64,000 nucleotides of DNA from Bacillota bacterium. Lineage in GTDB: Bacteria; Bacillota; Clostridia; TANB77; CAG-508. Positions 4,868 through 60,633 of the stretch are shown here, in pieces (the first letter of the stretch is position 1; the number at the start of each line of letters is the position of its first letter). Under the pieces are notes generated by a model that did not search any database, had not been told where the DNA came from, and saw only the letters and a program-made list of their open reading frames with translations. Location of the stretch: NCBI GenBank assembly GCA_963929915.1, contig CAWVJY010000008.1, forward strand, positions 226,705 through 290,704. Reading direction: 5' to 3'. The position numbers and the translations under genes are program-made.

Positions 4868-5080
4868 TTTTAACACCTCCTATCTTAATTCATTTATATT
4901 GTAACACAATGTAAGTACAATGTCAATTATATTTTATTAGTTTTCCCATAAAAAAGTTACATTATACAAAAATATTTTTTATTTAAAATGATTTTATAAT
5001 CATTTGAGACGCTTGTGAAAATGGTTAACTGCAAAAGTAAATTACAATTGTGAAAATTATGTGAAATTTTAAAATAGTAC

Positions 5081-5110: not shown

Positions 5111-5137
5111 TTAGCAGTCTTACAAAAAGACTGCTAA
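5111..5137 (+). promoter_or_regulatory. CIRCE operator (HrcA binding site)
   Basis: TTAGCAGTC-N9-GACTGCTAA against the consensus TTAGCACTC-N9-GAGTGCTAA. Perfect inverted repeat, 75 bp upstream of groES. Confidence 0.9.
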
Positions 5138-10262: not shown

Positions 10263-10449
10263 TAAGAAAAATCAGTAAACAAATTAGCTGGAAAAAATAT
10301 GCTATAAATATTGAAAAACAACCATAAAAATGATATGATAACAATACAGTGAAAACAGAAAGGAGAATTTGCTCTAGATACTTAAAAATTACTTGGTATC
10401 AAAAACAAAAAGAAGAAGTATAAAAAAGTCTAGTACAAATAAAATAACA

Positions 10450-12207
10450 ATGAAAGCAATTGAAATTAGAAATACCTATTTAAAATTTTTTGAAAAACAT
10501 GGACACAAAATTATTCCAAGTGCACCATTAATACCAGAAAACGACCCATCTGTATTATTCACCACAGCAGGTATGCAACCTTTAGTACCATACCTTTTAG
10601 GGGAAACTCATCCAGAAGGAAAACGTCTTACAGACTATCAAAAATGTTTAAGAACCAATGATATTGATGAAGTTGGAGATAATAGACATTTAACCTATTT
10701 TGAAATGTTAGGAAATTGGTCTTTAGGAGATTATTTTAAAGAAGAAGCAATAACTATGAGTTATGAGCTATTAACCAAAGAATTTGGCATTGACCCTAAC
10801 AAATTATCTGTAACCTGTTTTGCAGGTGATGAAGATGCACCAAGAGATGAGGTGGCAGCAAATGCTTGGAAAAAAGCAGGAATTCCAGAAGAAAGAATTT
10901 ATTTTTATGGTAAAGATGATAACTGGTGGATAGCAGGAGAAGAAGGACCTTGTGGTCCAGATACAGAAATGTATTTAGATACAGGTAAGCCTGCTTGTGG
11001 ACCAGATTGCCAGCCTTCTTGTAGCTGTGGAAAGTATGTAGAAATTTGGAATAATGTATTTATGGAATATTATAAATCCAAAGATGGGTCTATTTCTAAA
11101 TTAAAACAACAAAATGTAGATACTGGTCTTGGACTAGAAAGAATGACAATGCTTTTGCAAGGAAAAGAAACTCCATTTGATACAGAAATATTTTTACCAA
11201 TTATGGAAAAATTAAAAGAACTTGCAAAACAAGATTCTATAGAAAGTAGAAGAATTGTAGCAGAACACTTACGTGCAAGTATTATGGTTATTGCAGATGG
11301 CGGAAAACCAAGCAATATAGACCGTGGTTATGTATTAAGAAAACTAATTAGAAGAATGACAAGACATTTAAATAAATTACAAATAAATTTAGAGGAACTA
11401 GGAAACTTAATTGATTTATACATAGATACTTTGCAAGAGCTATATCCAGAATTACAATCTAAAAAAGACATGATTAAGCAAACTATTATAGAAGAAAAAA
11501 ACAAATTTATGAAGACTTTATCTCATGGAGAAAAGGAATTTGAAAAAGTAGTAGCTAAAGCAAAACAAGAGAATAAAACCATGATAGATGGGTATACTAT
11601 TTTCAAATTATATGAAACTTATGGTTTCCCTCCAGAAATTACAACAGATTTAGCAAAAGAGCAAGGATTTACTGTAGATTTATCTGAATTTGATAAACTA
11701 TTTAAAGAACATCAAGAAAAATCTAGACAAGGTAGTGAATTAAAATTCAAAGGAGGACTTGCAGAACAAAATGAGCAAACAATAGCTTACCATACTGCAA
11801 CCCACCTTTTACATAAAGCTTTACAAATTGTATTAGGAGATCATGCAAAACAATGTGGTTCTAATATTACTACAGAAAGATTAAGATTTGACTTTACTCA
11901 TCCAGAAAAAATGACAAAAGAACAATTACAACAAGTAGAAAATTTGGTAAATGAACAAATTAAACGTGACTTGCCAGTAACTTGTGAAGAAATGACTTTA
12001 GAAGAAGCAAAAGCATCTGGTGCAACAGGTTTATTTGAAAATAAATATGGAGAAAAAGTAAAGGTATATACAATTGGAGATTTTAGTAAAGAAATTTGTG
12101 GTGGACCTCATGTTACCCATACAGGAGAGTTAGGACATTTTAAAATAAAAAAAGAAGAATCTAGTTCAGCAGGAGTAAGGAGAATTAAGGCTATTTTAGA
12201 AAAATAG
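10450..12207 (+). CDS. alaS: Alanine--tRNA ligase, short form lacking the C-Ala domain
   Basis: MKAIEIRNTYLKFFEKHGHKIIPSAPL, FTTAGMQ and WNNVFMEY, plus the editing-domain motifs HTATHLLH and CGGPHV. It ends right after GVRRIKAILEK. The start could instead be TTG 10393. Confidence 0.85.
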   Translation: MKAIEIRNTYLKFFEKHGHKIIPSAPLIPENDPSVLFTTAGMQPLVPYLLGETHPEGKRLTDYQKCLRTNDIDEVGDNRHLTYFEMLGNWSLGDYFKEEAITMSYELLTKEFGIDPNKLSVTCFAGDEDAPRDEVAANAWKKAGIPEERIYFYGKDDNWWIAGEEGPCGPDTEMYLDTGKPACGPDCQPSCSCGKYVEIWNNVFMEYYKSKDGSISKLKQQNVDTGLGLERMTMLLQGKETPFDTEIFLPIMEKLKELAKQDSIESRRIVAEHLRASIMVIADGGKPSNIDRGYVLRKLIRRMTRHLNKLQINLEELGNLIDLYIDTLQELYPELQSKKDMIKQTIIEEKNKFMKTLSHGEKEFEKVVAKAKQENKTMIDGYTIFKLYETYGFPPEITTDLAKEQGFTVDLSEFDKLFKEHQEKSRQGSELKFKGGLAEQNEQTIAYHTATHLLHKALQIVLGDHAKQCGSNITTERLRFDFTHPEKMTKEQLQQVENLVNEQIKRDLPVTCEEMTLEEAKASGATGLFENKYGEKVKVYTIGDFSKEICGGPHVTHTGELGHFKIKKEESSSAGVRRIKAILEK

Positions 12208-19889: not shown

Positions 19890-19942
19890 ATATTACAATT
19901 ATATTACAAATATATTACAATAATATTAAATTATGATTACAA
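19890..19942 (+). promoter_or_regulatory. Phased TATTACAA array upstream of the sepF promoter
   Basis: TATTACAAT / TATTACAAA / TATTACAAT at exact 11-bp spacing, plus GATTACAAA. TTGACA at 19955-19960 follows. Confidence 0.5.
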
Positions 19943-20029
19943 ACACAAAAACTATTGACAAGAAGACTAAAAAGTTAGATACTATTTACAGTTAAACGAA
20001 TGATAAATTCGAATTAGGAGGTTGTTTAA

Positions 20030-20515
20030 ATGGCAGGAGCTATTATGGAAAAAGTATGGGGATTATTTGGAATGGACCCAGCTGAAGATAAAGAAGAAGA
20101 AGAGGTAGAAAACTACGATCAAGAAGAGGAAGAAGCTACCGAAGAAGAGGATCAAGAACAAGAAACAAGAAGACCTTGGGGAAGAAAAAATAGCAAAGTA
20201 GTTAGTATGCCACAAGTTCAACAAGTAAAAATGGTTATTTCTCAACCAACAAACTTTGAACAAGCTGCTAATATTTGCGATTTATTAAAACAAAAGAAAT
20301 CCGTAATTGTTAATTTAGAATATGTAAATAAAGATGTTGCAAGAAGAATTATAGATGTAGTATCTGGAGCAGTACATGCTTTAGATGGTCATATGCAAAA
20401 AATTTCTAATTCTATTGTATTAATTGCACCATTTAATTATGATATTGAAAACGAAATGGCTAGAGATGAAATTAAAAATAAATTATCCGTTTCATGGCTA
20501 AGAAATAATAACTAA
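20030..20515 (+). CDS. sepF: Cell division protein SepF
   Basis: Acidic N-terminus, then VISQPTNFEQAANICDLLKQKKSVIVNLEYVNKDVARRIIDVVSGAVHALDG. SD AGGAGG. Confidence 0.9.
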   Translation: MAGAIMEKVWGLFGMDPAEDKEEEEVENYDQEEEEATEEEDQEQETRRPWGRKNSKVVSMPQVQQVKMVISQPTNFEQAANICDLLKQKKSVIVNLEYVNKDVARRIIDVVSGAVHALDGHMQKISNSIVLIAPFNYDIENEMARDEIKNKLSVSWLRNNN

Positions 20516-20582: not shown

Positions 20583-21032
20583 ATGCTAACCCCTTTAGAT
20601 ATTGAGAACAAAAAATTTTCAAAACAAATGATGAATGGATATAGTGTAGAAGAAGTAGACGACTTTCTAGATGAATTAACAGCAGACTACGAAAAAATAT
20701 ATAAAGAAGTTGCAGAAGCAAAAAATAAAATAGAAGATTTACAAGAAAGTATGGAAAAATATAAAAATATCGAAGGAACTTTACAAAATACTTTGGTAAT
20801 GGCACAATCTGCAGCAGATGAGGTAAAAAGGCTTGCAAAACAACAAGCTGAGCAAATGATTAATGAAGCACAAGCAACTGCCAAACAAGCTGTTACAGAA
20901 TTAGAACAAGAATTAACTTTAAAGAAAAAAGAAATGGAAGAAGTACAAAAACAATTTGATGTTTACAAAGCAAAAATGGAATCTCTTTTAATTTCACAAT
21001 TAGAGTTATTAAAAGATGTGAATAAGGACTAA
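20583..21032 (+). CDS. divIVA: DivIVA-domain cell-division protein
   Basis: MLTPLDIENKKFSKQMMNGYSVEEVDDFLDEL is the canonical DivIVA N-terminus, followed by a coiled coil. Confidence 0.9.
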   Translation: MLTPLDIENKKFSKQMMNGYSVEEVDDFLDELTADYEKIYKEVAEAKNKIEDLQESMEKYKNIEGTLQNTLVMAQSAADEVKRLAKQQAEQMINEAQATAKQAVTELEQELTLKKKEMEEVQKQFDVYKAKMESLLISQLELLKDVNKD

Positions 21033-21048
21033 GAGAATGTAAAAAGTG

Positions 21049-21079
21049 GAGATAGCTTTTAAATGCTATCTCTATTTTT
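21049..21079 (+). terminator. Terminator after divIVA
   Basis: GAGATAGC-TTTTAAAT-GCTATCTC followed by TATTTTT. Confidence 0.7.
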
Positions 21080-21090
21080 AGCTATTATAA

Positions 21091-21273
21091 TATTCAAAGT
21101 AAATATATTACAACGTTTGACCTTGGTGTCGCAATTTCCTATATTGTGCAAGAAAATCTACGATTTTCTGCACATACTAGCATGAAAATTGCTCCAATTC
21201 GCACTTCGTGGCACAGCCACTCCGTTTGGTCGCTTACGCGGTCTACACTTTTGTAATATATTTACTTTGAATA
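21091..21273. repeat. Hairpin-closed element A (23-bp perfect arms, 137-nt GC-richer structured core)
   Basis: Arms TATTCAAAGTAAATATATTACAA (21091-21113) and TTGTAATATATTTACTTTGAATA (21251-21273). The core contains the sub-hairpins GTGCAAGAAAATC/GATTTTCTGCAC and GTGGC-ACA-GCCAC, and the motif TGGTCGCTTACGC. Confidence 0.7.
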
Positions 21274-21349
21274 AATTGCTTAGTACTAAAATTCATTGAA
21301 AAAATTACTTTACTTTTACAAATACTTGTTATATAATACAACTAGAAAA

Positions 21350-21402
21350 ATATTACAATTATTTAACATTATTACAATTGCATTAAGAAAATATTACAAT
21401 TG
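21350..21402 (+). promoter_or_regulatory. TATTACAATT(G) triplet array upstream of the rsmD promoter
   Basis: Copies start at 21351, 21370 and 21392 (about two helical turns apart). TTGACA at 21414-21419 and TAAAAT at 21436-21441 follow. Confidence 0.5.
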
Positions 21403-21464
21403 TGTTAAAAATATTGACATATTAGCTAAAAACTATAAAATAGAAGTATATCATAAGAGGTACT

Positions 21465-22025
21465 ATGAGAGTAATTAGTGGAACAGCAAGAGGAACAAAA
21501 TTAAATTCAATTCAAGAATTGTCTACAAGGCCAACATTAGATAGAGTAAAAGAATCTTTATTTAACATTTTACAACCTAATATCCAAGAAGATTCTGTTA
21601 TTTTAGATTTGTTTTCAGGAAGTGGAGCTATTGCAATTGAATTTTTAAGTAGAGGTGCCGAAAAAGCCTATTTTTGTGAAAAAAATCAGTTGGCAGTAAA
21701 AATGATATACTCCAATTTAGAAAAAACAAAGCTAACAGAAAAAGCAGTTATTATTAAAAAAGACTATAAAAAAGCTTTAGAAATTTTACAGCAGGAAAAG
21801 GTAAAATTGGATTTTGTTTATATCGATCCACCTTATGAAGCGAATATTGCAGTTGATGCTGCAGAAAGAATTTTGTCACTAAATTTACTAAATGAAAAAG
21901 GAAACCTAATCATAGAAACCGATGATGAGAAACGAGAATTACTCGAATTGAAAGAATTAAATGTAGATGTTTATGATATAAGAAAATATGGAAGAGTGAG
22001 TCTTATATTCTTAAGAAAAAAGTAG
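21465..22025 (+). CDS. rsmD: 16S rRNA (guanine966-N2)-methyltransferase RsmD
   Basis: MRVISGTARGTKL...RPTLDRVKESLFNIL...DLFSGSG...YIDPPY. Confidence 0.9.
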   Translation: MRVISGTARGTKLNSIQELSTRPTLDRVKESLFNILQPNIQEDSVILDLFSGSGAIAIEFLSRGAEKAYFCEKNQLAVKMIYSNLEKTKLTEKAVIIKKDYKKALEILQQEKVKLDFVYIDPPYEANIAVDAAERILSLNLLNEKGNLIIETDDEKRELLELKELNVDVYDIRKYGRVSLIFLRKK

Positions 22026-22060
22026 AATTCCTACTTTTTAGGTTGAAAGGGGTTAAAGCA

Positions 22061-22498
22061 ATGGAAATATTCACCTTATTAGAAACATTAGAAGATATGT
22101 TAGAAAAAAGCAGAAATGTACCTTTTTCTGGTAAATGTGTTGTAGATAAAGAAGAAATTTTAGATATTATTAAAGAAATTAGATTAAAACTACCAGAAGA
22201 GCTAAAACAAGCAAAATGGGTAAAAGAAGAAAGACAAAGAATTTTAGTGGAAGCTCAAAATGAGGCAGATGAAATTATTAAAGAAGCAGAAAATAGAATT
22301 ATTTCTATGATTGATGAACACGAAATTACAAGAAAGGCCTATGAAAAGAAAGTAGAAATTATAGAAACAGCAAATGAAATGTCTCGCGAAATTTCAAAAG
22401 GAACCAAAGATTATGCAGATAGTGTTCTAGCTGGAATTGAAGTTGCACTTCAAGATGCATTAAAAGTAATTCAAGATAATAGAAAAGAACTTAAATAG
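22061..22498 (+). CDS. Conserved coiled-coil hypothetical protein
   Basis: MEIFTLLETLEDMLEKSRNVPFSGKCVVDKEEILDIIKEIRLKLPEELKQAKWV. I recall similar sequences being common in Clostridia but cannot verify this here. SD AAAGGGG. Confidence 0.6.
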   Translation: MEIFTLLETLEDMLEKSRNVPFSGKCVVDKEEILDIIKEIRLKLPEELKQAKWVKEERQRILVEAQNEADEIIKEAENRIISMIDEHEITRKAYEKKVEIIETANEMSREISKGTKDYADSVLAGIEVALQDALKVIQDNRKELK

Positions 22499-22511
22499 AG
22501 TGTTTTTTCGG

Positions 22512-22550
22512 AAGTCAGATATCGGAAGTTTCCGATTTCTGACTTTTTTT
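22512..22550 (+). terminator. Rho-independent terminator
   Basis: AAGTCAGATATCGGAA-GT-TTCCGATTTCTGACTT followed by TTTTT. Confidence 0.75.
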
Positions 22551-22581
22551 AAAGAAGTTCTTGGACAAAGGAGGGGCTAGT

Positions 22582-25008
22582 TTGGCAAAAAGACGAGCAA
22601 AAAGAAGTAAAAACAAAGTAGATATTAATGTAGCGGTAGTAGTACTAGTATTACTTGCTATCTTATTAATGATATTAATTTATACAAAATCCGGAAGTAT
22701 TGGCGCTACCTTAAGCCCAATGCTTGGTGGTATTATGGGATTTATTAAATATGTGATTCCTATCGGTTTATTATTAATTGCCATTTATATGACTCATAAT
22801 GATAAAGAATATTTAATTCATAAATTAATTCAATATGGAATTTTTTTGGTCTGCATAGCAGCAATGCTTACGATTTTTCAAGTAGGCAATGGAAATCTTA
22901 CTATAGAAGATAGAGATTTTACGCAAATTATAGAAGACAGTTATTATTTGGGAGAAAAAGATATTGGTGGAGGAATCGTTGGCGCTTGTGTTGCTGTTCC
23001 ATTAATTAGTGCATTAGGAGAAGTAGGAGCTATTATTTTAACAATTGGAGTTTCCATTATTCTTCTTGTATTTATGTTCGGAATTCGCCCAGCAGAAATG
23101 ATAAGCAATTTCTTAGATCATTTAGAAGAAAGAAAAGAAGAACGAAGAGAAGAAAAATTGCAAAGACAAAATGATAAAAAACGAAATAAAGAAGAATTAC
23201 CGGCAAATGCAAAAGAAACAAGATGGCAAAGACGTTTAAGAGAAAAAGAAGAAGCAGAAAAATTAGCTTCACAAATTGAAAATCAATTAACCATTAATTT
23301 AGATGATGAAGAAGATAAAAAATCTGCTAAAAAATATGATCATAGTAAAGACGAACTAGACATACCATTTTTTGGTGGACTAGGAAAGAAAAAAGAAAAG
23401 GAAGAAGAAAAACAGCAACAACAAGAAACATCCCCAGATGTTATTGAAGCAAATTTATTTAAACAAGTAGAAGAACAAAAAGAAGATAAGGTAAAAGAAG
23501 TTTTACAATTAGAGCATACCATTACTGCTGAAGATGAAAATTATGAATTTCCTCCTGTTCAGCTTTTAAGTGAGCCAGAGAAAAAAGGAAATAAAGCAAG
23601 TAAAAAAATGGTAACAGATACAGCAACCAAATTACAAAAAACATTATATAGTTTTGGCGTTTCTGCCAAAGTAGAAAATGTATCTGTAGGCCCTGCTATT
23701 ACTAGATATGAGCTAAAACCAGCAGAGGGGGTTCGTGTTAGCAAAATTGCAAATTTAGCAGATGATATTGCTTTAAATTTAGCAGCAGAAACCATTCGTA
23801 TTGAGGCTCCAATTCCAGGTAAACAAGCAGTAGGAATTGAAATTCCAAACAAAGAAAATGAAGTTGTTCATTTTAGAGAAATGATAGAATCAGATGTTTT
23901 CCAAAATCATAAGTCTAAACTTGCTTTTGGGTTAGGAAAAGATGTAGCAGGGGATCCAGTAGTAACAGATATTGCAAAAATGCCCCATGTATTAATTGCA
24001 GGTGCAACAGGTTCTGGAAAAAGTGTATGTATCAATACTCTTATTGCTAGTATTATTTATAAAGCAAAGCCAAGTGAAGTAAAATTATTAATGATAGACC
24101 CAAAAGTTGTAGAACTTTCTGTATATAATGGTATACCACATTTATTAATTCCAGTAGTAACAGATCCAAAAAAAGCAGCAGGTGCATTGGCATGGGCTGT
24201 GCAAGAAATGGAAAATCGTTATCAATTATTTGCTACAAAAGGGGTAAGAGATATTAAAGGATATAATGAAGTGGCAAAACAAGAAGAATCAGGAAATTTA
24301 CCACAAATCGTTATTATTATTGATGAGCTTGCAGATTTAATGATGGTAGCTTCCAAAGATGTAGAAGATTCTATTTGCCGTTTAGCACAAAAAGCAAGAG
24401 CTGCTGGAATGCATTTAGTAATTGCAACACAAAGACCTTCTGTTGATGTTATTACAGGAATTATTAAAGCCAATATTCCATCTAGAATTTCTTTTGCAGT
24501 TTCTTCACAAGTAGACTCTAGAACCATTTTGGATATGGTAGGAGCAGAAAAATTGCTTGGTAAAGGTGACATGTTATTCTATCCATCAGGCGCACCAAAG
24601 CCTACTAGGGTGCAAGGAGCATTTATTTCTGATAAAGAAGTAGAAAAAATAGTAGACTTTATTAAAGCAAATGGCGAAGTGGTATATAATGAAGATATTA
24701 TAGAACAAATTGAAAATGCCAACAAAACAGATAAAGAACTAGAAACAGAAGGCGGACCAGATGATGATGGAACAGATCCATTATTAATGGAAGCAATTGA
24801 TACTGTGGTAGAAACAAGGCAAGCCTCTACTTCTTTTATTCAAAGAAGATTTAAAGTAGGATATGCTAGAGCTGGAAGAATTATAGACCAAATGGAAGAA
24901 AGAGGAATTATCTCTGGTTACCAAGGTAGTAAACCTCGTGAAGTATTAATGCCAAAAGAAAGATGGCAAGAGCTTAAAATGGCACCTATGGACCAAACAG
25001 AAGAATAG
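22582..25008 (+). CDS. ftsK: DNA translocase FtsK/SpoIIIE
   Basis: N-terminal TM helices, a K/E-rich linker, Walker A GATGSGKS, Walker B IIIDELADL, and a C-terminal gamma winged helix (SFIQRRFKVGYARAGRIIDQME). SD AAAGGAGGGG precedes TTG 22582. Confidence 0.93.
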   Translation: MAKRRAKRSKNKVDINVAVVVLVLLAILLMILIYTKSGSIGATLSPMLGGIMGFIKYVIPIGLLLIAIYMTHNDKEYLIHKLIQYGIFLVCIAAMLTIFQVGNGNLTIEDRDFTQIIEDSYYLGEKDIGGGIVGACVAVPLISALGEVGAIILTIGVSIILLVFMFGIRPAEMISNFLDHLEERKEERREEKLQRQNDKKRNKEELPANAKETRWQRRLREKEEAEKLASQIENQLTINLDDEEDKKSAKKYDHSKDELDIPFFGGLGKKKEKEEEKQQQQETSPDVIEANLFKQVEEQKEDKVKEVLQLEHTITAEDENYEFPPVQLLSEPEKKGNKASKKMVTDTATKLQKTLYSFGVSAKVENVSVGPAITRYELKPAEGVRVSKIANLADDIALNLAAETIRIEAPIPGKQAVGIEIPNKENEVVHFREMIESDVFQNHKSKLAFGLGKDVAGDPVVTDIAKMPHVLIAGATGSGKSVCINTLIASIIYKAKPSEVKLLMIDPKVVELSVYNGIPHLLIPVVTDPKKAAGALAWAVQEMENRYQLFATKGVRDIKGYNEVAKQEESGNLPQIVIIIDELADLMMVASKDVEDSICRLAQKARAAGMHLVIATQRPSVDVITGIIKANIPSRISFAVSSQVDSRTILDMVGAEKLLGKGDMLFYPSGAPKPTRVQGAFISDKEVEKIVDFIKANGEVVYNEDIIEQIENANKTDKELETEGGPDDDGTDPLLMEAIDTVVETRQASTSFIQRRFKVGYARAGRIIDQMEERGIISGYQGSKPREVLMPKERWQELKMAPMDQTEE

Positions 25009-25138: not shown

Positions 25139-26692
25139 ATGGATAAAAAGGAAAAAATACTTAAAAAGCTTCATATAACAGATTATACAAATCGCTTAGA
25201 GAAGGTTTTGGAAAAAAAGAAATTTTCTTTCGATACCAAAAATCTTCTTTTAAGCATGTTCTATAAAATAGAAAATGGATATCAAGATTATCAAAAAACA
25301 AAAGTACAAGTAGAAAATAAAGAAGATTTTTTTGAAAAAATACTCCAAATCATTGATAAAAAATGTGAAGAAATTATTACCACCAAAGATGTTTTAGTAG
25401 ATGAAAAAAAGCAAAAAGTAGATTTTATGGTAGATAAAGAAAAAGGAAAAATCGTAGCTTTAGGAAATGAATTTGTTTTATTAAACGCTATTTTAGTACT
25501 AGGAGAAAAAGAAATTTGTTTTCCAGAAGAAGAAAAGCTTTTACAAACACCATTTACAGCCTTTTTTAATTTAGGACTAAGAATGCATGAAACAGAAGTA
25601 ATTCGAGATTTTAATGGCTGGTCATGGGATATTGTTACAAAAGATATTACCAATATTCCTGTAAATCTTATCTTCCAAAGTTTTCTATATTTACTAGGGC
25701 AAGATTTTATGGCTCAATGGATAAATAATAAGAGTGAATTAGCAGATTATTTTATGTTAGCTGCTGAGAACATGAAACAAAACTTTGGAGAAGAAAGAAG
25801 TAAAAAAATAGTATCTCTATTTTGTAAATTAGTGATAGAGATTGTGGCAGAACAGGATGAAACACAAGCAACTTTATGGAAAAAGTTAAAAAAGGAAAAT
25901 AAAATAGAATTAGAAAAATTAAGTAATAAGCCAAAATTTCTAGAAGAAATTACCAAAGAAAAAAAGGAAATCACCAAAAAAATTGAAAAAATTGATAAAA
26001 TCATGAATAATAAGATTCTTTTACAACAGGAGTATGAAGAAAGAAATGAAAAATTACCTAATAAAGAGAAGATTTTTAGTATTAGGCATTTAACCAATCG
26101 TTTAGTAGAAGAAAGACAAGAACTAGTTGAGAAAATGAAACAAAGCAACAATTTAATTGATCCAAAAGAATATGTTGCTCGTAAGGAAAAAGTAGAAAAA
26201 AGGGTAGAGTTTTTAGATAGTTTAGATTTAGAAAATAAAACAGATAGAAGAGAAGCGTTATTACAACTATGTATACTATTCTTAGAATGTTTTGAAATCA
26301 AAACCATTAAAGCACAAAAAAAGGAAGAAGTCATTCATTATTTTTACGAATTAAGATATTATCGCTTTTTACCTTTTGAAGAAGAAGTGAAACTAAAAGA
26401 AATAGAAAAATTAAATCATATTTTTGAAAAAGAAATATCATTATTAATAGAAAAAGCACAAAAAATGGCAATTATTGATGAAGTTACGGCAGATAAAGAA
26501 ATTAATCAAAAAATCATTGGAAACTTATTTAATAGTAAATTAATTGATTTAAATCATTTAATTATTGAAACAAAAGTAGAAGAAGGCAAATTATATGCAG
26601 AATATTATGATACTAATATTTTAGAAAATGTTGTAGAAGTACAAAGCAATAGAACGGTGAAACTAAAGAAAAAGACAAAATTGTTTCTTTAG
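25139..26692 (+). CDS. Hypothetical K/E-rich protein (517 aa)
   Basis: Long ORF with an SD AAAGGTGG. No motif recognised. The stop codon abuts REP1. Confidence 0.6.
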   Translation: MDKKEKILKKLHITDYTNRLEKVLEKKKFSFDTKNLLLSMFYKIENGYQDYQKTKVQVENKEDFFEKILQIIDKKCEEIITTKDVLVDEKKQKVDFMVDKEKGKIVALGNEFVLLNAILVLGEKEICFPEEEKLLQTPFTAFFNLGLRMHETEVIRDFNGWSWDIVTKDITNIPVNLIFQSFLYLLGQDFMAQWINNKSELADYFMLAAENMKQNFGEERSKKIVSLFCKLVIEIVAEQDETQATLWKKLKKENKIELEKLSNKPKFLEEITKEKKEITKKIEKIDKIMNNKILLQQEYEERNEKLPNKEKIFSIRHLTNRLVEERQELVEKMKQSNNLIDPKEYVARKEKVEKRVEFLDSLDLENKTDRREALLQLCILFLECFEIKTIKAQKKEEVIHYFYELRYYRFLPFEEEVKLKEIEKLNHIFEKEISLLIEKAQKMAIIDEVTADKEINQKIIGNLFNSKLIDLNHLIIETKVEEGKLYAEYYDTNILENVVEVQSNRTVKLKKKTKLFL

Positions 26693-26736
26693 GGACGGTT
26701 CTCAGTGGCCCCATTTGGGGTCACTTGGGACACTTC
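26692..26736 (+). repeat. REP element copy 1 (orientation A)
   Basis: GGGACGGTTCTCAGTGGCCCCATTTGGGGTCACTTGGGACACTTC, with the central hairpin AGTGGCCCC/GGGGTCACT. Confidence 0.85.
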
Positions 26737-26836
26737 ATTAAAAAGAGAAAGATTAAAAATTATTACTATTAACCAAAGACCAAAATATAAAATATAATAC
26801 AAATTATAATTTTTTAGGAGAGGATTGAAATTAAAT

Positions 26837-28605: not shown

Positions 28606-30585
28606 ATGAAAAATAAATATTATAATAATGCTATTATTGGGGGAAAAAACATTACAGCAAGTTATAGTAAAACAGGAGAATTGTTAAGGGTTATGTATCC
28701 AAATCCAGATTTTAGAAGTTGGATAGATGAATTTTTAACTGGTGTTAAAATTAATGATTCTGGAATGATTTATTTACATGAAGATTGCAATAATCAATAT
28801 CATCAATATTATACTGAAAATACCAATATTTTAAAAACTGAAATTTTAAATACCTATTTTCAATTACAAATTAAGCAAACCGATTTTGCCTTACTAAAAA
28901 ATAGCATATTGGTAAAAAAGTATGAATTTGAAAACAAAAATAATATTGATTTAAAAGTAAATTTTTTAGTACATAGTAAACTCTTATCAGATACCAATAA
29001 TATGGTAGGAAGTGAAGTAAAATATAATACACTAATTCAATATTGCCACGACTATTGTCTTTACCTTTTTTCACCATCTTCTTTATTAAGTTATCAATTA
29101 AATGATACTAAAGAAAATATTGGAAGTGGAGAAATTTATGATAAAGACTATATAGGTATGTCTTGTGATTCTAGTATTAGTTATGATATTGGAATTCTAA
29201 AACCAGGAGAAAAGAAAGAATTAGTGCTTTATTTGTATTTTAAAAATAATACGACAGCAGATATAGGAACAGAAAAAATAAGTAGTAAACAATTAGAAGA
29301 ACAGTTACTAAAAGAAATAGCCGAAATAAAAAAGATAGATGTACAAAAAGAAGAACAAGATGTAGAAAAATACTGGAAAAAATATGTAAAAGAACATTTA
29401 ACCATTCCTTTAAAACCAGAAACAAATACTTTTCATAAAAAATGGAACCAAATTTATCAAAGAAGCATTTTATTATTTCCTTTATTAATCAACCAAGAAA
29501 CAGGGGGAATTAGTGCAACTGTAGAAGTTGATGAAAATATGACACAATGTGGAAGATATGCCTATTGCTGGCCAAGAGATGCAGTATGGATTACCAAAGC
29601 ATTAGATTTGCTAAAAATGACAAAGGAAACGGAAAAATTTTATAAAATCTTCTGCAAAGAAACCCAAAGTAAAAATGGAATGTGGGAACAAAGATTTTAT
29701 ACAGATGGAAAATTAGCACCTTGTTGGGGATATCAAATTGATGAAACAGCCAGTGTTATTTATGGAGTTTATGAACATTATAAGGTAGTAAAAGATGCTA
29801 AATTTTTAAAAGACACTTATAAAATGTGTGAAAATGCTGCAAAGTTTTTAGGAATTTATTTAGATAATGTGTTAGGCACAAAAGATGAATCAGATGTGGT
29901 AAAAAAAGAAATAGAAGAAACTTACCATACAGAGGGAAGAAATAAATTGCCAGTTAGTTATGATTTATGGGAAATGCATGAAGGAGTACATTTATATTCC
30001 TTATCTGCTATTTATGCAGCCTTTGAAGCAATGAAACAAATTCATATTGTTTTAAAACCAAGTTATGAACAAAATAATCGACTAAAAGTAGAAGCAATGA
30101 ACAAACTAGAAGCCAAAATGATAAAATATCAGGAAGAAATTAAAAAGTATATACTTGCCAACTTATATGACGAAAACACTAAAACTTTTTCTAGAAACTT
30201 AAATGATAATCGTACAGATATTAGTGAACTTGGAATGATAGTACCATTTGCTTTGTTTTCTGCAAAAGAAAAAAAGGTACAAAATACTATTGAAAAAATC
30301 AATATGACATTAAGAACTTATACAGGAGGATACTTAAGATTCGAGCAAGATCATTACCGTGGTGGAACAAGTCCATGGCCAATAGCTACTTTATGGATGG
30401 CAATGTACTATCAGAAGGCTGGAGAAAGAAAAAAAGCAAAAGAATGTATCGAATTTGTTGTAAATTCTGCCAATGAACACGGCTTACTAGGTGAGCAAGT
30501 AGACAACCAAACTATGCAGCCGAATTGGGCAATTGGCTTACGGATGGGCCCATGCTATGTTTGTTTTGGGGACGGTTCTCACTGA
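28606..30585 (+). CDS. Glycoside hydrolase family 15 (glucoamylase/glucodextranase-like)
   Basis: CWPRDAVWITKAL, WEQRFYTDG, YQIDETASVIYG, DLWEMHEG, PWPIATLWMAMYY, GLLGEQV. The 3' end runs into REP2, and the expected W-AHAMFV motif is out of frame (possible indel near 30540). Confidence 0.85.
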   Translation: MKNKYYNNAIIGGKNITASYSKTGELLRVMYPNPDFRSWIDEFLTGVKINDSGMIYLHEDCNNQYHQYYTENTNILKTEILNTYFQLQIKQTDFALLKNSILVKKYEFENKNNIDLKVNFLVHSKLLSDTNNMVGSEVKYNTLIQYCHDYCLYLFSPSSLLSYQLNDTKENIGSGEIYDKDYIGMSCDSSISYDIGILKPGEKKELVLYLYFKNNTTADIGTEKISSKQLEEQLLKEIAEIKKIDVQKEEQDVEKYWKKYVKEHLTIPLKPETNTFHKKWNQIYQRSILLFPLLINQETGGISATVEVDENMTQCGRYAYCWPRDAVWITKALDLLKMTKETEKFYKIFCKETQSKNGMWEQRFYTDGKLAPCWGYQIDETASVIYGVYEHYKVVKDAKFLKDTYKMCENAAKFLGIYLDNVLGTKDESDVVKKEIEETYHTEGRNKLPVSYDLWEMHEGVHLYSLSAIYAAFEAMKQIHIVLKPSYEQNNRLKVEAMNKLEAKMIKYQEEIKKYILANLYDENTKTFSRNLNDNRTDISELGMIVPFALFSAKEKKVQNTIEKINMTLRTYTGGYLRFEQDHYRGGTSPWPIATLWMAMYYQKAGERKKAKECIEFVVNSANEHGLLGEQVDNQTMQPNWAIGLRMGPCYVCFGDGSH

Positions 30586-30613
30586 CCCCTAATGGGGCCA
30601 CTTGGGACACATC
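30569..30613 (+). repeat. REP element copy 2 (orientation A), left flank of the RAYT gene
   Basis: GGGACGGTTCTCACTGACCCCTAATGGGGCCACTTGGGACACATC. Confidence 0.85.
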
Positions 30614-30753
30614 ATATCATCTGAATTAACTCAAATGAAAAAAGAATCATAAATAATTTTAACAAGTACTTGCAAAATTATAAAAAATATGAGAAGATGT
30701 AAAAGAGAGAGAATTATAAAAAAGAGGGGCACTATCGGAGAAAGGAGGCAATT

Positions 30754-31595: not shown

Positions 31596-31640
31596 GAAGT
31601 GTCCCAACTGACCCCTTTTGGGGTCACTGAGAACCGTCCC
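31596..31640 (-). repeat. REP element copy 3 (orientation B), right flank of the RAYT gene
   Basis: GAAGTGTCCCAACTGACCCCTTTTGGGGTCACTGAGAACCGTCCC, the reverse complement of the REP1/2 consensus. Confidence 0.85.
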
Positions 31641-31648
31641 CAGAAAAC

Positions 31649-33062
31649 ATGAAAGCAAAAACAATTTTTGTATGTAGTAATTGTGGATATGAATCACCAA
31701 AATGGCTAGGAAAATGCCCAGGTTGTAATGAGTGGAATAGTTTTTATGAAGAGAAATTAGCTATGCAAACAGGTTCAGGAAAACAGACAGAAAAGAAAGT
31801 AGTTACTCCTAAATCATTAAATGAAGTAGTAGGAAAAGATGCTATTCGTATCCACACTGGAATTGGAGAATTAGATAGAGTTCTAGGGGGAGGTTTAGTA
31901 AAAGGTTCTTTAGTATTAGTAGGAGGAGAACCTGGAATTGGTAAATCTTACTCTTATTTGGAACTTTGCGATAAAATGCAGGCAGAAGGAAAAGTTCTTT
32001 ATGTTTCAGGAGAAGAGTCTGCTGAACAAATAAAATTAAGGCAGATCGACTTGGAATCCACAATGACGACATTTTATTTTTAGGAGAAACTGATATTTCA
32101 CTTATAGAAAATACAATATTAGAATTAAAACCAAAATTAGTTATTATTGATTCTATTCAAACAATGTATTCTGAAGATATTTCTTCGGCGGCAGGAACAG
32201 TAAGCCAAGTTCGCGAGATTACAGCTCGTATTATGCGTATTTGCAAAGGAAATGAAATTACTACTATTATTATTGGTCATGTAACAAAAGAAGGAAATAT
32301 TGCAGGACCTAGAGTTTTAGAACATATGGTAGATACTGTACTTTATCTAGAAGGCGAAAGGTATTTTTCTTATCGAGTTTTGCGTGGCGTTAAAAATCGT
32401 TTTGGGCTCTACCAACGAAGTAGGGATGTTTGAAATGCAAAATGAGGGAATGGTAGAAATAACAAATCCTTCTTCTGTATTAATTTCAGAAAGGGAGGAT
32501 AATCCTTCAGGTTCTGTTATTATTGCAAGTATGGAGGGAACTAGACCTTTGTTAATAGAATTACAGGCATTAACGACACCGACTGTATTTGGTTTTCCGC
32601 GTAGAACAGCCAATGGAATTGATTATAACAGGCTTACTTTGTTAGTTGCAGTACTAGAAAAAAGGGCTGGACTTGCATTAAGTTCACAAGATGTGTATTT
32701 AAATGTAGTAAGTGGAATCAGAATTGTAGAACCTGCTGCAGACCTAGGCATGATTTTAGCTTGTTGTTCTAGTTTTAAAAATACTAGTATTCCTAAAAGT
32801 ACAGTTGTTATTGGAGAAGTACGGATTAACAGGAGAGGTAAGAGCAGTAAATTTAATAGAAAAAAGATTAAAAGAAGCGGAAAAATTAGGATTTAAAACT
32901 TGTATTATACCAGAAAGTAATAAAAAACTATTGAAAGATAAGTACAAGTTAGATATAATAGGGGTTAGAAATGTAAATGAGGCGATGAAAAGTAGTGGGG
33001 CTAAAGTAAAAGTTAAGAAATTTAGTGAAGTGTCCCAAGTGGCCCCATTTGGGGCTACATAG
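31649..33062 (+). CDS. radA: DNA repair protein RadA; three frameshifts as written
   Basis: Zinc ribbon CSNCGYESPKWLGKCPGCNEW, Walker A GGEPGIGKS, KNRFG, and a Lon-like C-terminal domain. The four track ORFs (31649, 32164, 32384, 32805) are consecutive pieces, with indels near 32040, 32408 and 32819. The last codons lie inside REP4. Confidence 0.85.
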
Positions 33063-33071
33063 AACCGTCCC
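33027..33071 (-). repeat. REP element copy 4 (orientation B)
   Basis: GAAGTGTCCCAAGTGGCCCCATTTGGGGCTACATAGAACCGTCCC. Confidence 0.85.
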
Positions 33072-33087
33072 TAGAAAGGAAAATGTG

Positions 33088-37354: not shown

Positions 37355-37780
37355 ATGAATACTTTATTAATATTTTTTGCCCTTCCTATAGCAACCATTA
37401 TTTTAGCCATTGTATTACAAAAAATATTAAAATGTGCATTATTAGTAGCAGCAACATTTTTTGCAATTTATTTAATTGTAACTTTTGCCGCTTTTGATGC
37501 TAGTTTTTTAGTCTTTGCTATTGCATATACCATTTTGGCCTATATTACGGCGGTAATAACCAAAATTATTTGCCATTGTTTAGAAATTTGGAGACAGCAA
37601 TGTAATTGTAATAATACTGGAAATGCAAGAACACAAAATACTCCAATTACCATTAATAATACAAGTCCTTGTACCAGTATTAATCTGGCAAGCGGAGCTA
37701 ATTTGTTAACAGATACAAATCAAACAACTCAAACAAGAAGAAATCATAATTGTTGCTGGAATTGTTCACGTAGAGGGTAA
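37355..37780 (+). CDS. Hypothetical membrane protein with a Cys/Asn/Thr-rich tail
   Basis: 141-aa ORF with an SD AAAGGAG: three hydrophobic helices, then CNCNNTGN...NHNCCWNCSRRG. Confidence 0.55.
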   Translation: MNTLLIFFALPIATIILAIVLQKILKCALLVAATFFAIYLIVTFAAFDASFLVFAIAYTILAYITAVITKIICHCLEIWRQQCNCNNTGNARTQNTPITINNTSPCTSINLASGANLLTDTNQTTQTRRNHNCCWNCSRRG

Positions 37781-37828
37781 ACATAAGTTTTTATTTTTAC
37801 ATGCATAATATGATTCTAAAATTTATTT

Positions 37829-37977
37829 TATAAAAGGAATAGAATTGTCTTTTTCAATTTTTAAAACCTTTCCCCTTTTGGACATCTGTAACTCGGCGTA
37901 AACGCCTCGAACAGCTGTCACAATGGTCGCCCACGCAAGGCTTAAAAATTTCAAAAGACAATTCTATTCCTTTTATA
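37829..37977. repeat. Hairpin-closed element B1 (25-bp perfect arms; core shared with B2)
   Basis: Arms TATAAAAGGAATAGAATTGTCTTTT (37829-37853) and AAAAGACAATTCTATTCCTTTTATA (37953-37977). The GC-richer core carries the nested stem GACATCTGT/ACAGCTGTC and the apical hairpin GGCG-TAAA-CGCC. Confidence 0.8.
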
Positions 37978-37987
37978 TTTAATACTT

Positions 37988-38075
37988 TATTACAATTATA
38001 TTACAAATATATTAAATTTATATTACAAACAAAGAACTTATTGTTTTTAGACGAAAAATGTTGTACAATAAATTA
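37988..38075 (+). promoter_or_regulatory. TATTACAA array plus putative promoter of the pilus operon
   Basis: TATTACAATTATATTACAAATATATTA is identical to the 19891 array, and there is a third TATTACAAA at 38021. It is followed by TTGTTT...TGtTGTACAAT (extended -10) about 50 bp before cpaB-like. Confidence 0.5.
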
Positions 38076-38114
38076 AATGATGATATTTTGTAAATTTATA
38101 AGGAGGAACAAGCA

Positions 38115-39065
38115 ATGGCAAAGAACCCAATGCAAAGAAAAGCTCAAAATTCATTTCTTTTAGGAATGTTAATCACATTATTAATAACAGGAATTATTAT
38201 TGCTGTTTTAGTAATACAACTTACTAAAATAACAAGAGAACAAAATGAGGCAAAAGCAAATTTAAAACAGGTTTATGTATTAACACAAGATGTTAATTCA
38301 GGAGATACTGTTACTACCGATATATTAACATTACAAGCAATGGACGCAAGTACTATTCCATCCAATGCACTAAGTTTAGCAGAACTAACTGCTAAAAGCG
38401 ATATTGTAGACGAAAATGGTAATCTTATTCAAAAAATGAATGTTGTTAGTAAAATAGATTTGAAACAAGGAACAATTATTACTTCTGATATGATTGCAGT
38501 ACAAGATGAATTAGCAGCAGATTTAAGAAAAGTAGAATATAATATGATTGTTCTTCCAACACAGTTACAAGATGGCAAATATATTGATATTCGTTTAAAA
38601 TTACCAACAGGAGAGGATTTTATTGTAATTTCCCATAAACAAGTAGAAATTCCTACTGTTGAAGGAATAGATTCTTTAAATAGTATTTGGTTAAACTTAG
38701 ATGAAACAGAAATTTTAACTTTAAGTTGTGCTATTGTAGAATCTTATCAAATTCAAGGTTCTCTACTATATATAACTGAATATGTGGAACCAGGCTTACA
38801 AGAAGCAGCTACTGCAACTTATTTACCAAACGATTCAACTATTAATTTAATTAACCGTGATCCTAACTGTGTAGCAGAAGCTAAAAATGCATTATTTGAA
38901 AGAAATAATAATCAGAGCACTAAAAATTCAGTTAGAAATCCTGTTAATAATAATTTAAATAATAATGCAGAAGATGCAATTGATAATGTTATTGACAATG
39001 TAGAAGAAGAAATTAGAAAAACGCAAGAAGAAAGACAAACTTATTTAGAGTCGTTAGGTGGATAA
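38115..39065 (+). CDS. CpaB/RcpC-like Flp/Tad pilus assembly protein (TM helix plus SAF-like domain)
   Basis: A basic N-terminus plus a TM helix, then VYVLTQDVNSGDTVTTDIL (SAF-type strand pattern). First gene of the operon, with SD AAGGAGG. Confidence 0.65.
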   Translation: MAKNPMQRKAQNSFLLGMLITLLITGIIIAVLVIQLTKITREQNEAKANLKQVYVLTQDVNSGDTVTTDILTLQAMDASTIPSNALSLAELTAKSDIVDENGNLIQKMNVVSKIDLKQGTIITSDMIAVQDELAADLRKVEYNMIVLPTQLQDGKYIDIRLKLPTGEDFIVISHKQVEIPTVEGIDSLNSIWLNLDETEILTLSCAIVESYQIQGSLLYITEYVEPGLQEAATATYLPNDSTINLINRDPNCVAEAKNALFERNNNQSTKNSVRNPVNNNLNNNAEDAIDNVIDNVEEEIRKTQEERQTYLESLGG

Positions 39066-39135
39066 TAGAAAAGTAAAAATATGATAATTTAGAAAATTAA
39101 TCTTAAAAAATAGAAAAAAGTAATAGGAGGAAAGC

Positions 39136-39837
39136 ATGAAAACGGTAGGATTTATAGGGGCATATGATAAAACAGATTTGATTGTTTATATAGCAAGAAT
39201 TCTAGTGGTATTAGGAAAAAAAGTTTTGGTAATAGATGCTACTACTTTACAAAAAGCAAAATATATAGTACCTGCTATTTCTCCTGCTAAATCCTATATT
39301 ACTGATTTTGAAGGTATTGATATTGCAGCAGGATTATATAATTTTACCTCAATTAAAGAATATTTAGGGATGCCTTTACATGCAGCTTTTGAATATGATT
39401 ATATTTTTATTGATGCAGATTCATCAGAAGTGATTGAAAGTTTTAATTTACAAACTGCAAACCAAAATTATTTTGTAACGGCTTTTGATGCTTATTCTTT
39501 AAAAAGAGGATTAGAAATTTTATCTGGAATAGCAGAACCAATGAAACTAAAAAAAATACTATTTTCCAAAAATTGTACTGTAGAAGAAGATGAATATCTA
39601 AATTATTTATCATTAGGCTATAAAATTATATGGGATGAAGAAAAAATTTATTTTCCATTTGAATCAGGAGACCAAACAGTTATTATGGAAAATCAAAGAG
39701 TCGCCAAAATTAAATTGAAAAAGTTATCAGAACTCTATAAAACTAGCTTGATGTATGTTGCAGAAGAATTATTAGATAATGAAAAAGAAAGTGCAAATTT
39801 AAAAAAGGCATTTAAACAATTAGAAAAAGGGGTATAA
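39136..39837 (+). CDS. ParA/MinD-fold protein with a degenerate Walker A (TadZ/CpaE-like)
   Basis: MKTVGFIGAYDKTDLIVYIARILVVLGKKVLVIDAT aligns to the ParA/MinD N-terminus, but GAYDKTD replaces KGGxGKT. Confidence 0.6.
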   Translation: MKTVGFIGAYDKTDLIVYIARILVVLGKKVLVIDATTLQKAKYIVPAISPAKSYITDFEGIDIAAGLYNFTSIKEYLGMPLHAAFEYDYIFIDADSSEVIESFNLQTANQNYFVTAFDAYSLKRGLEILSGIAEPMKLKKILFSKNCTVEEDEYLNYLSLGYKIIWDEEKIYFPFESGDQTVIMENQRVAKIKLKKLSELYKTSLMYVAEELLDNEKESANLKKAFKQLEKGV

Positions 39838-39842
39838 AGTTC

Positions 39843-40688
39843 ATGGCAATAATTACATTTTGTAGTAATGAAACTAAAGAAACAGGACAAACCTTATCTT
39901 TAGCGGCAATTGCTTCTTTTATGGCAATTGAGCATAATTATAAAATTCTAGTAGTATCCACAAATTTTAATGATTTGAGCTTAGAAAATTGCTTTTGGGA
40001 ATATAACAAAATAAGGCCATCTGGAGCAATTAAAATAGATGGACAAAAAAATGTGGGGCTAGAATCTGGAATAGAAGGATTAATTAAAGTCTTAAATAGT
40101 AATAGAACTAGTACTGAAATTGTAAAAAACTATTCTAGAATTGTATTAAGAGATAGATTAGACGTTTTTTTATCACCTATTACAAAATCTTATCAAGAAT
40201 ATACACAAATTACACCATATTATACAAACATTCTTCAAATTGCTAATAGGTATTATGACTTGATATTTGTAGACTTAAGCAAAAAAATGCCTAAACAAGA
40301 TGCAAATGACATTTTACAATTATCTGATATTGTTGTGGTAAACCTTACTCAAAGATTAAAAACAATAAATGATTTTATGCAATTAAGAGAATCTAACGAA
40401 TTTTATCAAAGAAAAAATGTAATGCTTGCTATAGGAAGATTTGATAAATTTTCTAAATATAATAGCAAAAATATTACTAGATATTTAAAAGAAAAGAAAT
40501 TAATTTCTGTAATTCCTTATAATACATTATTTTTTGAAGCTTGCTCAGAAGGAACCATTATTGACTTTTTACTAAAAGTAAAGAACATTACAGATGAAAC
40601 AGACCGTAATAGTAGTTTTATAAAAGAAATTCAAGCAATAGATAATAGTATTATTTTTAAATTACAGGAACTACAAATGAAAATGTAA
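39843..40688 (+). CDS. Second ParA/MinD-fold protein with a degenerate Walker A (TadZ/CpaE-like)
   Basis: MAIITFCSNETKETGQTLSLAAIASFMAIEHNYKILVVSTN has the same fold pattern, with SNETKETGQT in place of the P-loop. Confidence 0.55.
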   Translation: MAIITFCSNETKETGQTLSLAAIASFMAIEHNYKILVVSTNFNDLSLENCFWEYNKIRPSGAIKIDGQKNVGLESGIEGLIKVLNSNRTSTEIVKNYSRIVLRDRLDVFLSPITKSYQEYTQITPYYTNILQIANRYYDLIFVDLSKKMPKQDANDILQLSDIVVVNLTQRLKTINDFMQLRESNEFYQRKNVMLAIGRFDKFSKYNSKNITRYLKEKKLISVIPYNTLFFEACSEGTIIDFLLKVKNITDETDRNSSFIKEIQAIDNSIIFKLQELQMKM

Positions 40689-40715
40689 TCCTATTAGAAA
40701 GGAGACTTTAAAAAG

Positions 40716-59990: not shown

Positions 59991-60013
59991 AAGTAAATAA
60001 GGAGGAAAGACAA

Positions 60014-60632
<619 letters not shown>

Positions 60633-60633
<1 letters not shown>

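Follow-up and report, generated by a model that had tools for sequence, protein, structure and literature searches.

What reads the phased repeats that lie directly upstream of sepF in an uncultured gut bacterium, and to what end? In the 64-kb stretch of DNA analyzed here (the window), a short word recurs in compact arrays in front of sepF, in front of a probable rsmD–orf151–ftsK operon, and in front of a pilus-like operon. An earlier note on this DNA had matched the word to no known operator consensus, and had proposed either the site array of an uncharacterised regulator or a curvature or UP-like module. In our view, the WalR (YycF/VicR) orthologue of this uncultured low-GC gut Clostridia bacterium is likely to use the three arrays as its operators, which would make them a conserved but essentially ordinary regulatory element. 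WalRK is the cell-wall and cell-division two-component system of Gram-positive bacteria. The arrays are located as follows.

19891..19942, minus strand: putative sepF operator array, five half-sites phased at 11 bp
21351..21410, minus strand: putative rsmD operator array, one exact TGTWAH-N5-TGTWAH match at 21352–21368
37988..38028, minus strand: putative operator array of the pilus-like operon, one exact TGTWAH-N5-TGTWAH match

In the sepF array, TATTACAA was found at 19891, 19902, and 19913, followed in the same register by the weak TATTAAAT at 19924 and by GATTACAA at 19935. The array of the pilus-like operon contains TATTACAA at 37988, 37999, and 38021, with the weak TATTAAAT at 38010. The rsmD array contains TATTACAATT at 21351, 21370, and 21392, and its hexamers are ATTACA at 21352, TTAACA at 21363, ATTACA at 21371, a weak ATTAAG at 21382, ATTACA at 21393, and a weak GTTAAA at 21404. 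The 27-mer TATTACAATTATATTACAAATATATTA is identical at 19891–19917 and 37988–38014, a recurrence expected 0.00 times according to 100 dinucleotide-preserving shuffles. The regions upstream of sepF and of the pilus-like operon align past the boxes through the −35 region, and they differ by an 11-bp indel that corresponds to one box. Throughout the window, the word occurred 24 times against 9.76 ± 3.0 expected, a count reached in 0 of 100 shuffles, and 21 of the 24 occurrences were on the plus strand. Similarly, the pair of boxes at 11 bp, TATTACAANNNTATTACAA, had three matches against 0.00 expected, and the pattern DTWACA-N5-DTWACA-N16-DTWACA had two against 0.03 expected. The coordinates and sequences that the earlier note gave for the sepF triplet at 11-bp spacing with its fourth box, for the identical 27-mer, and for the triplet at 21351, 21370, and 21392 were all reproduced, and none of these is expected by chance. 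Other assemblies of the same species also carry the arrays, and the arrays themselves were confirmed in short-read assemblies.

The boxes can be identified on the opposite strand. There, TATTACAA becomes TTGTAATA, and TTGTAATA-N3-TTGTAATA equals TGTAATA-N4-TGTAATA on the minus strand. A consensus of TGTWAH-N5-TGTWAH was derived for WalR/YycF/VicR from B. subtilis and S. aureus (PMC9210968), and was refined to TGTWAHA-N4-TGTWAHA for VicR of S. mutans by footprints and mutagenesis (PMC4168254), while chromatin immunoprecipitation sequencing (ChIP-seq) in S. aureus gave the WalR motif TGTHH-N6-WGTNDD (PMC10746227). The sequence TGTAATA-N4-TGTAATA fits the first two forms exactly, and TGTAATATAATTGTAAT fits, by inspection, TGTWAHA-N4-TGTWAHA and the ChIP-seq motif. 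The half-sites of the sepF array read TGTAAT(A) on the minus strand and provide two overlapping exact matches to TGTWAH-N5-TGTWAH. In the 64-kb window, four exact matches to this consensus were found against 1.68 expected, all on the minus strand and all inside the three arrays (19892–19908, 19903–19919, 21352–21368, and 37989–38005). In three strains of the species, box 3 is TGTTACAA instead of TATTACAA, a variant that remains inside the WalR consensus. Matches with one mismatch numbered 50 in the window against 40.7 expected, which is background and uninformative; hence, the window holds no further site of note, and the ATTACAA upstream of groES is no exception. A literature search with TATTACAA as the operator word returned nothing relevant, and the match was seen only after reverse-complementing. 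The earlier note missed this identity because the published consensus is written on the opposite strand.

Several other operators were compared by inspection. Spo0A (TGTCGAA), the DnaA box, MraZ (GTG-type repeats), LytTR (9-bp repeats approximately 21 bp apart), CodY, CcpA, Rex, LexA, and CtsR did not fit; CG is absent from the arrays, and the geometry of their repeats is wrong for these operators.

Predicted promoters were found next to the arrays at all three loci.

19955..19983, plus strand: predicted sepF promoter, −35 TTGACA at 19955–19960, 17-bp spacer, −10 GATACT at 19978–19983
21310..21338, plus strand: predicted rsmD promoter P1, −35 TTTACT at 21310, 17-bp spacer, −10 TATAAT at 21333
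21414..21441, plus strand: predicted rsmD promoter P2, −35 TTGACA at 21414, 16-bp spacer, −10 TAAAAT at 21436
38041..38069, plus strand: predicted promoter of the pilus-like operon, −35 TTGTTT at 38041, 17-bp spacer, −10 TACAAT at 38064

The position of the arrays 5' of promoters, as had been proposed, was borne out: 12–14 bp separate the end of each array from a −35-like hexamer (TTGACA at 19955, TTGACA at 21414, and TTGTTT at 38041). The sepF promoter is followed by a ribosome binding site (RBS), AGGAGG, at 20016 and the ATG at 20030. P2 matched 11 of 12 positions in the promoter scan and precedes the rsmD ATG at 21465, and ATTGACATAT is kept in relatives. The promoter of the pilus-like operon scored below the threshold of the scan, while it aligns with the sepF promoter, with TTGTTGTACAAT kept in a related locus (L074), and is followed by an RBS at 38101 and the ATG at 38115. 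A counterpart of P1, TTTACA/TTGACA-N17-TATAAT, is kept at the same position in most relatives, and P1 is presumably functional. Transcription from P1 is predicted to start immediately 5' of the rsmD array, which would therefore sit in the P1 leader. The predicted starts are near 19990 for sepF, 21345 for P1, 21448 for P2, and 38076 for the pilus-like operon. As a separate observation, the −10 region of sepF, AAAAAGTTAGATACTA (19978-19983 in the window; L127-L206), is near-invariant among loci with 67–95% SepF identity despite the poor GATACT hexamer, which hints at an extra constraint, such as another factor, a discriminator, or a leader function.

Could the boxes simply be promoters themselves, or debris of a repeat? 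Sequences of the form ATTACA, 18 bp, TACAAT, which could act as overlapping weak promoters, do occur at 19892–19921 and 21371–21400, where they score 9 of 12 in the promoter scan. However, the final T of TACAAT is not kept, with 64% A and 22% T at position +7, and the third position in relatives is a weak TATTAAA, with no −10-like hexamer kept. Remnants of a dispersed repeat or mobile element carrying the 27-mer would account for 27 identical bases, spacers included, at two loci, and the dispersed repeat D1 (37819–37991, described below) lies next to one array. The similarity among D1 copies, however, ends before the boxes, and orthologous conservation at three loci across 54–95% protein identity is unlike a recent insertion. 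Moreover, with 21 positions constrained and spacers composed of A and T only, the identity of the 27-mer requires only approximately six coincident spacer bases. Weak promoters or repeat remnants are accordingly given hardly any probability as an explanation of the arrays.

Conservation was examined in a gene-first manner, using 80 SepF loci from metagenomes with 67–95% protein identity that were gathered without regard to the motif. The comparison sets comprised 50 distinct sepF upstream regions and 31 distinct rsmD upstream regions. At least three DTWACA hexamers within 80 bp 5' of the TTGACA were found in 41 of the 50 sepF regions, with a mean of 2.64 hexamers per region against 0.46 after shuffling. 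Of 86 distances between successive hexamers, 46 were 11 bp and 39 were 22 bp (85 in all), and the final hexamer begins 19–20 bp ahead of the −35. The usual layout is strong-strong-weak (TATTAAa)-strong, followed by approximately 13 bp, tATTGACA, a 17-bp spacer, and GATACT, and the promoter portion tATTGACA-N17-GATACT is kept in 47/50 orthologous sepF loci. The lineage of the window has one additional strong 11-bp unit. Upstream of rsmD, all 31 regions contained at least two hexamers (mean 2.97 against 0.34 shuffled), the last strong box is located exactly 21 bp before the −35 in 31/31, and weak boxes occupy the intervening 11-bp positions. The array layout of the pilus-like operon was also observed ahead of the orthologous first gene at five other loci (L033, L058, L074, L092, and L110). 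In a profile of 132 boxes, a T at position −1 was present in 89%, position 1 was A or G (88% and 12%) and never T, and the following T-T-A-C-A was conserved at 99–100%. The T before ATTACA is the A at position 7 on the other strand, as in the S. mutans refinement. The spacers after the boxes are A-rich but variable in relatives. Boxes that are kept while their spacers vary, strictly in phase with the helix and at a constant distance from the promoter, are the hallmark of a protein operator.

The same data bear on a module that requires no protein, in which phased AT-rich repeats bend the DNA or serve as UP elements for the alpha subunit. Such promoter-upstream modules with phased repeats are exemplified by the C. 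perfringens plc promoter, and phased A-tracts stimulate clostridial promoters. The exact 11-bp phasing directly 5' of the −35 would suit this explanation, as would the A-rich spacer in relatives (ACAAAAAT), which gives phased A-tracts. In the window arrays, however, the spacers (TTA, ATA, and TAA) contain no tract of A4 or longer, and hence no A-tracts of at least 4 bp at 10–11-bp phasing, and the conserved positions are those of T-TTACA, including an invariant C, with variable spacers between them. Additionally, the same hexamer pair is found in Firmicutes of 40–50% GC with flanks that are not A-tracts, it overlaps the −10 in M23 peptidase genes, and it is associated with genes of one function, which is unexpected for a generic UP element. 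The curvature or UP-like module raised in the earlier note is therefore not favored, and we regard it as highly improbable.

A motif-first scan complemented these comparisons. One genome per species was searched for TATTACAANNNTATTACAA, with two perfect boxes required, which returned at least 120 loci. About half of the matches listed were from metagenome-assembled genomes (MAGs) of low-GC gut Clostridia, and the matches listed in Firmicutes are intergenic and adjoin a narrow set of genes. Among these matches, the array adjoins sepF (at least nine loci), ftsA (at least seven loci), mraZ, an orthologue of the CpaB-like gene (at least five loci), pilin-like genes (at least five), a PilM-like gene (at least two), M23 peptidase genes (at least three loci), and genes of a SleB-type Hydrolase_2 with PG_binding (at least two loci). 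It also adjoins NlpC/P60-SH3 genes in Roseburia hominis and Anaerostipes, genes of other SH3 proteins, a polysaccharide deacetylase-LysM gene in Metaplanococcus, and ltaS in Staphylococcus canis. Cell-wall hydrolase, teichoic-acid, and cell-division genes, the classes expected of a WalR regulon, were all found after the motif among the matches listed, while no pst, pho, or tua-type genes were found downstream of it in the same matches. In S. aureus, ltaS is an experimentally proven direct target of WalR (PMC10746227), and autolysins form the core of the WalR regulon in every Firmicute studied (PMC9210968). For B. subtilis, YycFG is reported to modulate ftsAZ (Fukuchi 2000).

The wal operons themselves provided a further example. 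In those of two Tissierellaceae and of Wukongibacter baidiensis (L054:3424-3442, L043, and L113), an exact TGTAAT-N5-TGTAAT followed by TATAAT was found between walK and the gene of a secreted protein of 170–190 aa that precedes yycH/yycI-like genes. The regulator and the kinase encoded in these operons have their highest scores with the YycF and WalK equivalog models, and the site suggests an internal promoter under WalR control. Box arrays in either orientation also precede an unannotated family of approximately 290–314 aa in at least six different Clostridia MAGs (L055, L086, L091, L103, L116, and L125). The family begins with MS(K/R)SGIVNVRMVITEEKILSNI…, is referred to here as the MSxSGIVNVRMV family, had no Pfam or NCBIfam match, and is a candidate envelope or division protein. 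With respect to the proposal of an uncharacterised regulator, the notion of a site array is upheld by conservation, phasing, and the fixed distance to the −35, while an uncharacterised regulator is not supported, given the WalR consensus match and the regulon.

Operators for WalR would work as follows. WalR is an OmpR-family response regulator with a winged helix that binds direct repeats as a head-to-tail dimer (PMC4168254). A spacing of 11 bp puts successive half-sites on the same side of the helix, where such a dimer could be bound. With its four in-phase positions (strong-strong-weak-strong), the conserved array would have room for two WalR dimers next to each other, which suggests that they bind cooperatively, and the sepF array of this lineage has apparently acquired a fifth unit. 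In S. aureus, activation is linked to WalR sites 5' of the −35 and repression to those located between the −35 and −10 or 3' of them, regardless of site orientation (PMC10746227). Given this position rule, the placement of the arrays 12–14 bp upstream of the −35 predicts activation. Phosphorylated WalR bound there would activate sepF, rsmD–orf151–ftsK (from P2), and the pilus-like operon, and the expression of all three loci would be coupled to the growth and cell-wall signal sensed by WalK. At the M23 peptidase gene in relatives, the boxes overlap the −10, so that repression is predicted there, which fits a regulon with both signs. More speculatively, the rsmD array could repress P1 while activating P2. 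That WalR is the binding protein is inferred from the sequence, as are the number of dimers per array, the sign of regulation, and the positions of the transcription starts.

Several observations weigh against WalR as the binding protein. Neither walR nor walK was found in the 84 kb of this organism that were examined, and no response regulator gene was found in the window or 10 kb further upstream. In a tblastn search of 209 loci and the window with the WalR of L054 and a B. subtilis WalR sequence, orthologues were found only in the Tissierellaceae and Wukongibacter loci and none in sequence of the focal lineage. A cognate WalRK in this genome is assumed because the literature places WalRK in all Firmicutes (PMC9210968). 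Published WalR sites usually consist of one pair of half-sites rather than four or five, the −35 of sepF is perfect, which is atypical for an activator-dependent promoter, and the A-rich spacers (AAAAT) in relatives mean that intrinsic bending may contribute. In addition, the gene counts of the motif-first scan, drawn from at least 120 loci with two perfect boxes required, are illustrative rather than exhaustive. Finally, TTACA-like half-sites are common to OmpR-family regulators, such that a paralogue could bind instead.

The last point leads to a different OmpR/PhoB-family regulator, either PhoP-like or a lineage-specific WalR paralogue, that binds TTACA-type 11-bp repeats as four tandem half-sites. 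The core binding region of B. subtilis PhoP consists of TT(A/T/C)ACA repeated four times with 11-bp periodicity. The four in-phase half-sites on the coding strand just 5' of the −35 resemble this region, ATTACA is one mismatch from the PhoP box, and the lack of walRK in the 84 kb would be explained; the closeness of these families is also seen in the good scores of the L054 WalR with the MtrA, RpaB, and PhoB models. However, the hexamer starts with A (88%) or G (12%) and in no case with T, which fits WalR (DTWACA) and not PhoP (TTHACA), so that the arrays share the periodicity of the Pho box but not its hexamer. Instead of Pho-regulon genes, division, hydrolase, ltaS, and wal genes followed the motif among the matches listed, and an identical sequence was found in Staphylococcus (at ltaS) and Planococcaceae (at a deacetylase-LysM gene of WalR-regulon type). 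A PhoP-like regulator or paralogue is considered unlikely, and WalR remains the preferred binding protein.

The genes served by the arrays are the following.

20030..20515, plus strand: sepF, encoding 161 aa with PF04472 SepF
20583–21032, 3' of sepF: divIVA, with PF05103 DivIVA
21465..25008, plus strand: probable rsmD–orf151–ftsK operon, with rsmD at 21465–22025, orf151 (151 aa) at 22043–22498, and ftsK/spoIIIE at 22561–25008
38115..50869, plus strand: pilus-like operon of approximately 12 genes, the first product of which is weakly CpaB-like

Almost every gene of the window is carried on the plus strand. The sepF array starts 3 bp past the stop codon of an HlyD-family gene, ahead of sepF–divIVA. 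No terminator-like sites were found between rsmD, orf151, and ftsK, which are presumed to form a single operon. The first gene of the pilus-like operon matched TIGR03177 (CpaB) with an E-value of 1.3e-6 and 27.8 bits, below the cut-off of 71, and the other products had no family match in Pfam, NCBIfam, and PDB sequence searches. Pilin-like hydrophobic N-termini, starting MENASKALIIAG…, are present in at least four small paralogous proteins of the operon. The operon at 38115-50869 may represent a divergent Tad/Flp-like pilus system, and the name "pilus" is tentative because the only match in these searches was the sub-threshold one to CpaB.

The window has a G+C content of 29.4% and matches metagenome contigs from an uncultured gut Firmicute, the closest named relatives being MAGs labelled "uncultured Clostridia bacterium" or "Clostridium sp." Frameshifts split many essential genes (regions 59700-64000, 10393-12207, 31649-32896, and 40716-42699), including rplC, rplD, rplB, rpsS, rplV, and rpsC of the S10 operon, alaS, radA, and an ATPase-like gene of the pilus-like operon. 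The split genes most likely reflect indel errors of long-read assembly rather than pseudogenes. An IS30-like transposase gene (1611-2666; weak matches to HTH_38 and rve) is located between a HEPN/nucleotidyltransferase pair and pyrG. It is missing at the same place in the contig of another strain (L208, compared with L207) and represents a strain-level insertion polymorphism.

Two extensions of the array family proposed in the earlier note did not hold. Upstream of groES (5040–5050), only a single ATTACAA was found, which is not TATTACAA and has no phased partner. A CIRCE-like inverted repeat, TTAGCAGTC-N9-GACTGCTAA, is located at 5111–5137 between the predicted groES promoter (TTGACA at approximately 5082) and groES, and the HrcA operator CIRCE likely explains groES control rather than the ATTACAA at 5041. 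In hairpin element A (21092-21272), one isolated box per arm was found (21106 on the plus strand and 21251 on the minus strand), which is not significant. Located 3' of the divIVA terminator and 5' of the rsmD promoters, the element consists of perfect 22-nt inverted arms (21092–21113 and 21251–21272), each with its isolated TATTACAA, around a 137-nt GC-richer core. It is single-copy in the sequence examined, was found only in contigs of this species, is missing at the orthologous site of relatives, and had no Rfam match in E-value mode (21030–21300).

The dispersed repeat D1 spans approximately 155–173 nt, with copies at 37819-37991 and 53628-53800 in the window and at L207:8568-8720 that are 88–92% identical. 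Inverted-repeat arms of 32–36 nt, rich in AT, surround a GC-rich core of approximately 77 nt. The copies begin 25–50 bp past the stop codons of a DUF2651 gene, a transglutaminase-like gene, and greA, and one of them abuts the array of the pilus-like operon. Rfam in E-value mode (37780–38000) returned only spurious miRNA-precursor hairpin matches and no family, and D1 may be a REP/MITE-like or terminator-like element. Another element, a GC-rich palindrome of approximately 50 nt (GGGACGGTTCTCAGTGGCCCCATTTGGGGTCACTTGGGACAC), has four intergenic copies in both orientations (26685-26745, 30564-30615, 31596-31647, and 33021-33077) in this 29% GC genome, and a similar GGGAC-rich element was observed 3' of a box pair in L059. 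At the gathering threshold, Rfam found only two tRNAs in the whole window.

What the analysis adds is modest: long strong/weak arrays, their deep conservation in an uncultured gut lineage, and a set of candidate regulon members. A named, well-studied regulator is assigned to a seemingly orphan repeat, which offers a handle, available from sequence, on cell-division control in abundant and uncultured human-gut Clostridia. As a regulon marker, the array can also be used to prioritise unannotated genes, such as those of the 12-gene operon at 38115–50869 and the 314-aa MSxSGIVNVRMV family.

In comparison with known systems, the arrays are closest to the WalR operators of B. subtilis, S. aureus, and S. 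mutans, with which they share the identical half-site TGTAAT with an A at position 7, direct repeats with an 11-bp period, the association with peptidoglycan hydrolase, ltaS, and ftsA genes, and a position 5' of the −35, which by the S. aureus rule would predict activation. They differ from published WalR operators in their length, with four or five half-sites in phase and a strong/weak pattern that is conserved, instead of one pair. Further differences are the host, an uncultured low-GC gut Clostridia lineage, and the targets, as sepF, the rsmD–ftsK operon, and the CpaB-like pilus operon were not among the WalR targets in the literature compared. A tentative and rather doubtful extension is that the WalR-type regulator of these small-genome gut Clostridia uses unusually long operators of four to five sites and governs a divisome-centred regulon (sepF, ftsA, mraZ, and ftsK), together with the CpaB-like pilus operon, the pilin-like genes, and the 314-aa family, rather than mainly autolysins. 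In a stronger variant of this extension, the binding protein would be a lineage-specific OmpR-family regulator that took over the role of WalR. If long operators and a divisome-centred regulon are indeed characteristic of the lineage, array membership could reveal new division and pilus genes in unculturable organisms.

The PhoP boxes of B. subtilis and the PhoB boxes of E. coli are similar in their tandem hexamer or heptamer direct repeats with 11-bp periodicity. On such boxes, multiple dimers of PhoP or PhoB bind side by side, abutting or replacing the −35. The arrays differ from PhoP boxes in the A or G at position 1, and the Pho regulon serves phosphate scavenging rather than division or the cell wall; a similarity to PhoB has been noted (PMC4168254). 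A parallel is also found in MtrA of Mycobacterium and Corynebacterium, the actinobacterial counterpart of WalR, which is an essential OmpR-family regulator that binds a direct repeat with an 11-bp period, and whose direct targets in ChIP-seq include sepF, the divIVA homologue wag31, and peptidoglycan hydrolases (PMC6265350). MtrA differs from the regulator proposed here in its half-site of GT-a-AC type, in its GC-rich context, and in belonging to another phylum, and ftsZ and ftsA are not among its targets. The sepF–divIVA locus is nevertheless the same, and since MtrA targets sepF and wag31, control of this locus by this class of regulator has a precedent. The apparent recruitment of sepF, rsmD–ftsK, and the pilus-like operon would widen the WalR regulon beyond autolysins in a manner that parallels MtrA.

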